A DNA stretch of 12,657 nt from an uncultured archaeon (GCA_964426185.1 CAYRPF010000086.1:1-12657), one strand, 5' to 3'; positions 82-6,575 are shown, counted from the stretch's first letter. Program-made: numbers and translations. Notes: generated by a model not told the origin, from the letters alone.

Positions 82-942
82 ATGGATTTATTGGCAGAAT
101 TGGAGCGAAACAGTGCCTACGCCCAAAAAATGAATGATGTTAAGCAGATTTTAAGTCAAAAAAAGGTCATTGTTGCTTTTTCCGGTGGCCGAGATAGTGC
201 TTTGTTGTCATATCTTTCATCAAAATATGCAAAAAAGACATTATCGGTATTTTTACGATCTGAGCTGTCATCCAGCATCGAAGCTCGCCAAGCGGAAAAT
301 TTCTGCAAATATTACAAAATAAAATTCAAAAATATTCCAATTAAGCTGCTAAATATCCAAATGGTGCAAGAAAACAGCACACAACGATGCTACTACTGCA
401 AGCAATTATCTCTAAGCAACTTGGAGGAAATAGCCGATGAGAAAGGCTATGATTTGGTGGTTGATGGAACCAACTATTCAGATTTAAATCAATTTCGCCC
501 TGGATTACAAGCCTTAAAAGAAAGTAAGGTGGAGTCTCCCTTAGCTTTAGCATCTATAACAAAAAGGGATATCATTGAAATCAGCCGTCTATTGAATCTA
601 ATCTCCCAAAATTACTCATCTCAAGCTTGTCTTGCTTCCAGGATTCCCTTCGGAATTCCGATTACTAATGAAATCCTTCAGAAAATTGATAAAAGTGAAA
701 ACTTCATTCGTAGCTTATTACCGAATAAGCACTCCCCGATGCGTGTTAGAATTCAAAAACTACTACCCACAGAACAATTGTTAGCTCGGATAGAAGTCGA
801 TTCGGAGATTTATAAAGTGCTTTCCAGTACCGAAACTCGCGCAAAAATTGTAAAAAAGCTGCATGAATACGGGTTCACCTATATCACTGTGGATCTGGAA
901 GGCTTTCAAAGCGGCTCCATGCACCGCATGCTGAAAAAATAA
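82..942 (+). CDS. larE: ATP-dependent sulfur transferase LarE (PP-loop family, nickel-pincer nucleotide cofactor biosynthesis)
   Basis: PP-loop FSGGRDS, RCYYCK, DGTNxSDLxxFRPGLQA, ACLASRIPFG and C-terminal GFTYITVDLEGFQSGSM are characteristic LarE motifs. 286 aa. Confidence 0.92.
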   Translation: MDLLAELERNSAYAQKMNDVKQILSQKKVIVAFSGGRDSALLSYLSSKYAKKTLSVFLRSELSSSIEARQAENFCKYYKIKFKNIPIKLLNIQMVQENSTQRCYYCKQLSLSNLEEIADEKGYDLVVDGTNYSDLNQFRPGLQALKESKVESPLALASITKRDIIEISRLLNLISQNYSSQACLASRIPFGIPITNEILQKIDKSENFIRSLLPNKHSPMRVRIQKLLPTEQLLARIEVDSEIYKVLSSTETRAKIVKKLHEYGFTYITVDLEGFQSGSMHRMLKK

Positions 943-959
943 GATTGAAATAGAAAACG

Positions 960-969
960 AAAAAAAAAA
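960..969 (-). terminator. Oligo-U terminator candidate after the SECIS of the HesB-like selenoprotein
   Basis: A10 on + (U10 on -), 5 nt past the 3' arm of the SECIS stem. Archaeal terminators are typically U-tracts. Confidence 0.55.
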
Positions 970-974
970 GGTTG

Positions 975-1056
975 CCAATCGTTCATTAAGAGAAACTCAT
1001 GCCGAGTTTGTCCAGTTTCCACGAAGTTTATTGAAAACCTTCATCCTCACGATTGG
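975..1056 (-). promoter_or_regulatory. Eukaryote-like SECIS element in the 3' UTR of the HesB-like selenoprotein
   Basis: Minus-strand RNA. Outer helix CCAAUCGU (1056-1049)/ACGAUUGG (982-975). Core AUGAA (1044-1040). Helix GGUUUUCA/UGGAAACU. Loop AUAAACUUCG with AAA 11 nt after AUGA. 3' core GGAC (1013-1010). Starts 9 nt after the stop codon. Confidence 0.8.
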
Positions 1057-1065
1057 TTTTCACGC

Positions 1066-1365
1066 TTAATTCTCAACCAATACTAAGCGCTTGAAGGCAG
1101 CCCATCCGGCTAAATCGATTTTGGCCTGTCCCCAAAGATGACCGATGCGTTTATCGATGTAAATCGGGAATTTGCACTCTTCAGTTTTTTTTACCTCGAA
1201 CGCATCTTTATCTTGGATCATTTCCTCATCAGCCGGAGCTACCACATTCACGACTTCTGTACCACATCAACCTCGATATACTCGCTGAAACACCACTAAA
1301 ATGGGATTAGCGAATTCTTTGGCTTGTTCTTGCAAGTAGGCACAAGCTTCGTTTGTGATATTCAT
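1066..1365 (-). CDS. HesB/IscA-like selenoprotein, 99 aa, Sec33 (UGA at 1269-1267) in a G-U-C-G motif
   Basis: ATG at 1365 reads MNITNEACAYLQEQAKEFANPILVVFQRVYRG-UGA-CGTEVVNVV... in frame with the 61-aa track ORF, ending TAA at 1068-1066. N-terminal 'ITxxAxxYL', 'RGxCG' and 'IYID' resemble the HesB/IscA fold. A SECIS follows in the 3' UTR. Confidence 0.85.
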
Positions 1366-1628
1366 TGATGATCATATAGTTCAAGGAAACTAAATATTTT
1401 AAGTTGTGCATTTTATTTGAACAGTTATAGTAGAAAAGTGGATGATTTTTAAAATTCAAGGATTAATTTGGATACTTATTTTTTTTATTCTATTTTCTTA
1501 ATTTTCATTTTATTTATGTATTGAAGAATATTATCTGTTAAAACGAAGAATAAGTTGTCTTTGTACATAAGAATCTTCTTTTAGATATTTTCCACAAAGT
1601 TTTTATCACATTAAAAATTCGAATTTAT

Positions 1629-2855: not shown

Positions 2856-3104
2856 ATGTCACCGATCTTTCCTGCGGTTATATTTAAAGCTCAACAAATG
2901 TTGCAGAAATTCGAAGAAGATGCTATTTATGCCTTTTTGGTAGGCGCTATGATTGGAGCGATCATTGGGAATATAGCTATTCTTTCAGGCAACGAAGGTG
3001 GATTTCAAGTAGAAGTTGGAGTAGGTTCTGCTATAGCTGCTGCATCTATTATTTATTTAGCAGGAGGCTGTCTGCTTAAAGAATGTAATGGGATTAATTT
3101 TTAA
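2856..3104 (+). CDS. Small hypothetical membrane protein (2 predicted TM helices)
   Basis: 82 aa with two hydrophobic Gly/Ala-rich stretches (FLVGAMIGAIIGNIAIL; VGVGSAIAAASIIYLAGG). Fills the gap between ferritin and a convergent gene. Confidence 0.6.
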   Translation: MSPIFPAVIFKAQQMLQKFEEDAIYAFLVGAMIGAIIGNIAILSGNEGGFQVEVGVGSAIAAASIIYLAGGCLLKECNGINF

Positions 3105-6247: not shown

Positions 6248-6466
6248 ATGGTTGATATTGTTATGCAGAGTGCAATAACCTGTCCCTACTGTGGAAACAA
6301 AAAAACTTACCCGCTTTCTGAGACACTTTGAACCCAGCACTTAGAATGTGAGTTCTGCGGTAAATTGATCAAAGGCCATATGAACCCGCATGGTTGACCT
6401 TGAGTGTTCTGTACTTACGGAGATGTGCCTTGAATTGCAATTCAACGGAAAGCTCAAAGTTTTTAA
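6248..6466 (+). CDS. GDCCVxC-family (seleno)protein with four selenocysteines (U28, U50, U52, U62), 72 aa
   Basis: MVDIVMQSAITCPYCGNKKTYPLSETL-U-TQHLECEFCGKLIKGHMNPHG-U-P-U-VFCTYGDVP-U-IAIQRKAQSF*. UGA at 6329, 6395, 6401 and 6431. Matches the family pattern S.ITCP.CG...C....C..CG......GDCCVFCSYG.VPCPPIQ. SECIS downstream. Confidence 0.9.
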
Positions 6467-6482
6467 TATATTGTACAGAAGT

Positions 6483-6564
6483 GATGCGTATTCTAATGTA
6501 ATCATCTGATGAAGAGAAATCTGAAACCCACCTATTGGGAAGTTTCTTTGAGGGAATGCCCATT
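6483..6564 (+). promoter_or_regulatory. Eukaryote-like type II SECIS element in the 3' UTR of the 4-Sec protein
   Basis: AUGAA (6509-6513), helix GAGAAAUCU/AGUUUCUU, AAA (6524-6526) 11 nt after AUGA, apical mini-stem CCCA/UGGG, 3' core UGAG (6549-6552). Possible lower helix GAUG-C-GUAUUCU/GGAAUGC-C-CAUU. Confidence 0.88.
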
Positions 6565-6575
6565 CGGATTATATA

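Follow-up and report, generated by a model that had tools for sequence, protein, structure and literature searches.

A probable vicinal Sec-Cys selenoprotein with a predicted IscA-like fold in Lokiarchaeial Asgard archaea

The minus-strand segment 1066-1365 of the stretch of DNA analysed here (12,657 nucleotides from an uncultured archaeon, hereafter the window) almost certainly encodes a true selenoprotein in an Asgard archaeon of the Lokiarchaeia. Judging from sequence comparison, selenocysteine (Sec, U) is inserted at the UGA (1267-1269) through archaeal/eukaryote-type machinery and a SECIS element. To go by its predicted structure, the 99-residue product very probably has the IscA/SufA fold, with G-U33-C34-G at the tip of the hairpin that carries IscA's first ligand, Cys35, and with the C-terminal CxC missing. 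For the pair itself we tentatively propose a thioredoxin-cycled vicinal selenenylsulfide relay for sulfur or electrons, a mechanism drawn by analogy to which we give slightly less than an even chance. The whole account (Sec gene, IscA fold and selenenylsulfide relay) is our preferred explanation, held with moderate confidence. The features of the locus are:

82..942, plus strand: convergent LarE sulfur insertase with SGGRDS, CYYC and ACLASR (TIGR00268, 230 bits against a cut-off of 150, and sequence)
960..969, minus strand: run of ten T, presumably an archaeal oligo-T terminator common to the gene and the convergent larE (sequence; role from general knowledge of archaeal termination)
975..1056, minus strand: a helix pairing 1049-1056 with 975-982 may surround the SECIS hairpin together with a second, small one (weakly indicated, by the MFE fold)
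1011..1044, minus strand: Asgard eSECIS-like element, type I (pattern scans, covariation and the same grammar behind VhuD and SelD)
1066..1365, minus strand: putative full selenoprotein CDS, 99 codons and a TAA stop (translation with TGA as U, full-length homologues, a pN well under pS both before and after the UGA)
1066-1068 and 1363-1365, minus strand: TAA stop and ATG start, respectively
1264..1266, minus strand: Cys34 codon, TGT (sole invariant column of the family alignment; synonymous TGT/TGC variation in orthologues)
1267..1269, minus strand: in-frame UGA, predicted Sec33 (TGA in 8 of 8 aligned orthologues; TGC in the same column of homologue P0008)
1391..1400, minus strand: A/T-rich TATA-like box, 26-35 nt upstream of the ATG at 1365 (sequence alone)

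Under translation table 11 the locus yields a 61-aa ORF with a GTG start (1066-1251), and its frame runs on upstream through a single TGA to the ATG. The original prediction, that this ORF extends to a 99-codon gene containing R-G-U-C-G, is thus accurate; the motif reads V-Y-R31-G32-U33-C34-G35-T-E in context. The TATA-like box is placed where it could serve an mRNA with a short leader or none. Gene finders truncate the gene because of its internal UGA, and among named proteins the closest, from Candidatus Harpocratesius sp., has 62 aa and is annotated as hypothetical.

The UGA could also be an ordinary stop, with the 61-aa ORF as the true product or the locus a decaying pseudogene. This reading, which we consider very improbable, agrees with public annotation, where the 62-aa Harpocratesius piece is all that is recorded, and with the many database entries that are fragments of 55-63 aa. 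However, a 61-aa piece would be without half of the IscA fold, and the codons upstream of the UGA behave as coding sequence. Between the window and a congener, the 32 codons before the UGA have a pS of 0.71 and a pN of 0.14, and the codons after it a pS of 0.88 and a pN of 0.13; on these rates the upstream codons are under purifying selection, as a stop codon would not lead one to expect. The TGA is kept in all eight orthologues compared and followed by TGT or TGC, remaining constant across genera though the flanking codons vary.

Natural homologues also have Cys in place of the TGA, which again speaks against a stop: Cys-Cys stands at the U-C column in P0008, P0009, P0016, P0017, P0022 and a paralogue in the same genome. 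P0008, a homologue of the U-C gene of MK-D1 type (gene 117-422 of L047, an ENA metagenome contig), has the codons TGC-TGT, and its 3' UTR retains a near-intact SECIS hairpin in which the AUGA core has changed to UUGA. Together, the Cys codons and the near-intact hairpin point to an apparently recent Sec-to-Cys conversion, caught mid-course. Elsewhere, database homologues seem to have Trp at the motif. This 'W' is TGA read as Trp by gene callers; P0023, for example, has a TGA at the motif codon and no translation under table 11. The original prediction had named Trp at position 33, or a segment before the UGA that is unconserved in homologues, as grounds for giving it up. The apparent Trp being TGA, the first does not arise, and the segment before the UGA evolves as coding sequence.

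The host genome (an assembly of 3.26 Mb in 155 contigs, 92% complete) encodes tRNA-Sec, SepSecS (439 bits) and a SelD gene that itself has an in-frame TGA (Sec-SelD). We also considered and rejected a genome-wide reassignment of UGA, because TGA terminates 290 of the 1585 long ORFs (18%) in this genome. The conserved UGA, the Cys in its column, the coding conservation before it, the SECIS and the Sec machinery bear out the original claim of a hidden selenoprotein. The public annotation of genes in this family as hypothetical proteins of 55-63 aa is wrong.

A SECIS and a U10 run had been predicted behind the gene, and both are present (the hairpin at 1011-1044 and the ten T at 960-969). Read from the gene, the element consists of AUGA (1041-1044), one nucleotide, an 8-bp stem (1032-1039 with 1014-1021; no mismatches, two G-U pairs) closed by a 10-nt apical loop (1022-1031; AUAAACUUCG), one nucleotide, and GA (1011-1012). 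The AUGA starts 24 nt after the stop codon, and the UGA within it 25 nt after. Type I eSECIS-like elements of Asgard archaea are described as having the core GA_[G/A]A, a 7-15 bp upper stem that tolerates up to 2 mismatches, and an 8-20 nt apical loop in which adenines are left unpaired (Huang et al., 2024, PMC11227280); the element agrees with this description in core, stem and loop.

Using a pattern built after the same paper (UGA, 1 nt, a 7-12 bp stem, a loop of 8-20 nt, the stem's other strand, 1 nt, GA; PMC11227280), we found that 25 of 30 Sec-bearing homologues have a match 0-51 nt 3' of the stop, almost always with AUGA and zero mismatches. The strict pattern occurs 74 times in 6.5 Mb (both strands), against 26-48 times in shuffles, giving a chance expectation of about 0.3% per 265-nt UTR; by this count, its presence behind 25 of 30 homologues is above chance. 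The original prediction had proposed checking whether the SECIS is conserved across Asgard orthologues, and these homologues share the same grammar. In an alignment of 20 homologous UTRs, the AUGA, the AAA of the loop and the GA are invariant, and double compensatory changes are seen in all seven predicted stem pairs (7/7). A covarying SECIS 3' of the gene is a further point against a terminating UGA. The vhuD and selD genes of the host, both established selenoprotein genes, follow the same grammar and have the same loop signature, [A/G]UAAACUU.

An RNAfold z-score of -0.28 for the whole 3' UTR means that thermodynamics alone fails to flag the SECIS. A scan of the window with Rfam at E <= 10 returned zero matches to SECIS families, so the Rfam models evidently miss the element at 1011-1044. 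Some thirty further eukaryote-like Asgard SECIS examples with covariation, as gathered here, should be useful for models of SECIS evolution. On another contig of the host, a SECIS at C42 2550-2583 (plus strand) follows a candidate selenoprotein with a C-U-U motif; the element behind the window gene has the identical apical loop, AUAAACUUCG.

Searching the host genome in six frames with a profile gave five paralogues, the window gene included, with the motifs UC, UC, UU, UU and CC. The second U-C gene (C16:15353-15655) terminates in a UGA 27 nt before its SECIS. At C15:29762-30444 (L003 1130-1791, minus strand), a C-C gene is followed in tandem by one in which two TGA codons stand side by side (T-S-Q-U-U-G) and whose SECIS is perfect, while C43:5685-6008 (L048 4186-4509, plus strand) is a G-U-U-G gene of the G-U-U-G-I subfamily, likewise with two adjacent Sec codons. 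The G-U-U-G form with a perfect SECIS is present in six other genomes (L050-L055), including those of MK-D1 and L. ossiferum. Neither a vicinal Sec-Sec pair nor a vicinal diselenide redox centre is known to us from a characterised protein. The search for motif variants suggested in the original prediction turned up UC, UU and CC forms.

At the paralogue loci L002, L026-L030 and L032, the gene's own UGA stop lies 5-27 nt before the SECIS core and the Sec UGA more than 200 nt upstream. With the near UGA as stop and the far one as Sec, this arrangement fits a minimum-distance rule for Sec decoding.

Across the family alignment only the [U/C]-C pair is conserved, and there is no other conserved Cys. 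Distant relatives from the same order keep the Sec and have the Cys moved (U-S-G-x-x-C, U-T-x-x-F-C), and some relatives without Sec carry C-P-K-C. The family profile matches in 22 of 61 related genomes, nearly all with one or two in-frame TGA codons in the same place; the family is present in 12 of the 13 genomes of the window's own taxonomic family, and in 7 genomes of a 201-genome sample of the phylum. Named orthologues are those of Promethearchaeum syntrophicum MK-D1 (NZ_CP042905.2) and Candidatus Lokiarchaeum ossiferum (CP104013.1).

Three further observations were made in passing. P0014, a metagenomic protein of 4323 residues, matches query residues 20-62 in four separate stretches (E 4e-9), which suggests repeated copies of the hairpin region within a giant protein. 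An open frame at C5:61404-61949 (plus strand) contains C-T-L-G-U-S; it had no family-profile match, and the 150 nt that follow its TAA showed no SECIS. Within the window, 6248-6583 is another candidate hidden selenoprotein, a Cys-rich mini-protein of 72 codons with four UGA.

An AlphaFold2 model built with a 17-row family alignment has a mean pLDDT of 93.3, and consists in part of a helix (residues 5-15) and a long beta-hairpin (21-32/35-46) with U33-C34 as its two-residue tip. The top 12 PDB matches from Foldseek were all to IscA, SufA, AQ_1857, HI1723, DsrR and two 'Fe-S biosynthesis' proteins of Lactobacillus, with an E of 5.9e-5 and TM of 0.59-0.64. VIA-align gave Z 10.2 against E. coli IscA (1s98; 90 residues, rmsd 2.9), 9.7 for SufA and 8.6 for DsrR, and then values down to 3 for unrelated chains. 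Because the VIA alignment starts with model residue 1 on IscA residue 3, U33 falls on IscA Cys35; by this offset and motif matching, G-U-C-G corresponds to G-C35-S-G of IscA. The originally proposed equivalence of Sec33 with the first IscA Cys is consistent with the model, on the strength of the start offset and the motif match rather than of a residue-by-residue alignment. The other two traits that had been claimed, an adjacent U-C pair and the absence of the C-terminal CxC, can be read directly from the sequence: E. coli IscA ends in ...DECGCGESFHV (C99-x-C101), and the window protein, which has no counterpart to this, ends in ...KRLVLVEN with zero Cys.

Sequence profiles place the protein at a distance from the named families. 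It scores 12.5 bits against PF01521 (Fe-S_biosyn; cut-off 26.3), which 3 of 17 family members match at E <= 1, and TIGR01911 had no match at E <= 1 either in the genome or among the 17 members. Against NF041239 it scores 30.1 bits (E 3.9e-7; cut-off 40) over its full length, residues 2-95 lying on profile positions 4-87 of 91. This profile matches 16 of the 17 family members, also at full length and with every score under the 40-bit cut-off; the best paralogue in the same genome reaches 32.7 bits. By profile score, NF041239 is thus the nearest curated family, below threshold, and the window protein is outside TIGR01911. The original description of the protein as HesB/IscA-like therefore stands as regards its fold (the Foldseek top 12 and the VIA Z of 10.2), but not as regards sequence thresholds or the named HesB-like family, TIGR01911. 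The fold and the sub-threshold NF041239 match together suggest an archaeal protein distantly related to a bacterial selenoprotein family within the IscA/HesB fold superfamily.

Profile searching of a set of 5.8 billion proteins brought up no bacterial member with a name, and cluster look-ups yielded hardly any names. In sequence searches of the PDB neither the family profile nor the CC paralogue matched IscA, and hhalign gave no meaningful alignment between the family profile and the single E. coli IscA sequence. An atlas feature search with a CC homologue yielded leads all below 0.9, to PF01521-like clusters of Bacillota. Homodimer prediction for a natural CC homologue scored 0.01, which speaks neither for nor against a dimer.

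The conserved neighbours of the window gene and its eight orthologues are LarE and ferritin. The LarE motifs at 82-942 make up a CXXC-C signature, of the [4Fe-4S] type; LarE proteins with this signature form a [4Fe-4S]-dependent class that requires an external sulfane-sulfur donor (PMC9283937). LarE adjoins a window-type orthologue in 8 loci from 3 genera. However, all eight loci belong to a single taxonomic family, and common descent may account for the conserved gene order; since the genes are also convergent, we regard the link as modest. Genes of the sister subfamilies are instead adjoined by a thioredoxin gene with an N-terminal extension (12 loci, 6 genera, 2 families), either head-to-head or in tandem downstream of the SECIS; the conserved neighbour of the window subfamily is the convergent LarE, not thioredoxin. 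A different setting is that of the C-C/U-U pair on C15, which ends an operon of an ArsR regulator, an unknown gene, a ferredoxin, a DGC-GcvH-like fusion (with an in-frame TGA) and two further DGC genes. For this one paralogue pair, the operon points to metals or metalloids rather than thioredoxin.

The ferritin gene of the window is at 2292-2789. Just past it on the plus strand, an orphan 82-aa ORF (2856-3104) matches positions 105-178 alone of the 260 in PF03313 and is probably a fragment of a gene for the serine dehydratase alpha chain.

How might a vicinal Sec-Cys pair on this fold work? In the relay that we favour, the exposed selenolate of Sec33 would be the attacking nucleophile and Cys34 would resolve, forming a vicinal eight-membered selenenylsulfide ring. 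A ring of this size is possible in the C-terminal Gly-Cys-Sec-Gly of mammalian thioredoxin reductase, a centre of which the one proposed here would be the mirror image. Thioredoxin would re-reduce the ring, and the cycle would pass on either electrons or sulfane sulfur held as a Se-S-S adduct; for the window subfamily, the likely acceptor would be the neighbouring LarE of [4Fe-4S] type. We lean towards this reading because the chalcogen pair is the only conserved feature and its spacing is variable, as in redox pairs, because thioredoxin genes are conserved neighbours of the sister subfamilies, and because the motif mirrors that of thioredoxin reductase. The redox or S/Se-carrier role that the original prediction put forward as a possibility fits the thioredoxin and LarE neighbours.

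The IscA fold with Sec at a cluster-ligand position would suit a ligand for Fe-S clusters or metals equally well. Two monomers, each contributing Sec33 and Cys34, might bridge a [2Fe-2S] cluster, making the protein a Sec-based stand-in for the A-type carriers. Such an Fe-S or iron carrier, which we consider unlikely, would account for the IscA/SufA fold with Sec at the Cys35 position, for a LarE neighbour that is itself a [4Fe-4S] enzyme, and for the finding that 41 genomes from the window's order gave no PF01521 match at E <= 1e-5, the Sec/Cys family hence being the only IscA-fold protein detected in them. It can also draw on the CopZ-like selenoproteins with UC/CU motifs, which are listed as binding [2Fe-2S] (PMC13188914). 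Yet the C-terminal CxC, two of the three ligands of A-type carriers, is absent and no other Cys is conserved; the chalcogen spacing varies among distant relatives, a variability uncommon in fixed cluster sites, and the thioredoxin adjacency is left without an obvious role.

Less likely again, in our estimate, is a chaperone or buffer for soft metals or metalloids (Hg, As, Cd, Cu or similar), to which selenolate and thiolate would offer a bidentate ligand. The operon of the CC and UU pair, with its ArsR-family regulator, ferredoxin and three DGC-domain proteins, inclines this way, as do the candidate four-Sec, Cys-rich mini-protein in the same window and the ties of many recent prokaryotic selenoproteins to heavy-metal handling (PMC13188914). 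However, the window gene and its eight orthologues have LarE and ferritin as conserved neighbours and are flanked by no gene for metal transport or resistance, and the sister subfamilies pair with thioredoxin. We retain the selenenylsulfide relay. A bolder version of it, which we think doubtful, is that the family is a Lokiarchaeia-specific chalcogen relay replacing missing A-type and persulfide carriers, with the G-U-U-G form working via a vicinal diselenide and the U-C form delivering sulfane sulfur to LarE.

Published work lists five selenoprotein families in Lokiarchaea (Mariotti et al., 2016, PMC4989117), seven in Asgard archaea (Huang et al., 2024, PMC11227280) and eleven in archaea (a 2026 review, PMC13188914). 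None of the families listed there is of the U-C IscA-fold kind, so the genes described here add an unreported, multi-copy family; our literature search found no paper joining 'selenoprotein' with 'Promethearchaeum'. We see the family as an archaeal variant of the IscA/HesB-superfamily selenoproteins that is absent from the published archaeal lists, and whose function we infer. New here are the census of UC, UU and CC forms, the SECIS covariation, the LarE and thioredoxin neighbours, the lack of a canonical IscA among the genomes searched and the decaying SECIS behind a gene converted to Cys. Vicinal U-C and U-U pairs on an IscA scaffold, in a lineage whose searched genomes gave no canonical IscA, bear on the traffic of sulfur, selenium or electrons in these anaerobes. 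As MK-D1 and L. ossiferum, the only cultured Asgard archaea named among the matches, both have orthologues, existing cultures and proteomes can be used to test the family, and the Lokiarchaeia-specific relay, if true, would be directly testable in them.

The nearest curated family, NF041239 (Moor_selen_rel, the CC/Se motif family of Moorella thermoacetica and other bacteria), likewise has members of about 90-100 aa and alternates Sec with Cys at a Cys-rich motif. Its genes have a bacterial SECIS within the ORF, whereas the window gene is archaeal with a eukaryote-like SECIS in its 3' UTR. Its reference motif is CxxU and it is listed as bacterial alone (PMC13188914), in contrast to the vicinal U-C, and also U-U and C-C, of the window family. 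HesB-like selenoproteins of TIGR01911 (e.g. Methanococcus maripaludis MMJJ_08070) are likewise small members of the IscA/HesB superfamily with Sec near a Gly-rich turn, and their function is described as unknown (PMC11097638). Their motif is UxGP (PMC13188914), and some window-family members read U-C-G-P, but in the window family the second residue is an invariant Cys. The (2Fe-2S)-binding CopZ-family selenoproteins (cd10141; GxUC and CU motifs, PMC13188914) are small prokaryotic proteins that share the vicinal Sec-Cys pair, although their fold and family are unrelated and their hosts bacterial.

Closest in predicted structure are IscA, SufA and ErpA (PF01521; 1s98, 1r94, 2d2a, 1x0g), which share the fold over 90 of 99 residues and a Gly-flanked chalcogen at the Cys35 hairpin. 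The window protein differs from them in being without the C-terminal C-x-C, and in having Sec for Cys with a second Cys adjacent. Closest in the motif itself is mammalian thioredoxin reductase, with an adjacent Cys and Sec between glycines and a tie to thioredoxin, which on the window side consists of the motif and the gene adjacency of the sister subfamilies. The two are not homologous; thioredoxin reductase carries C-U on the flexible tail of a flavoenzyme, whereas the window protein would present U-C at the hairpin tip of an IscA fold.
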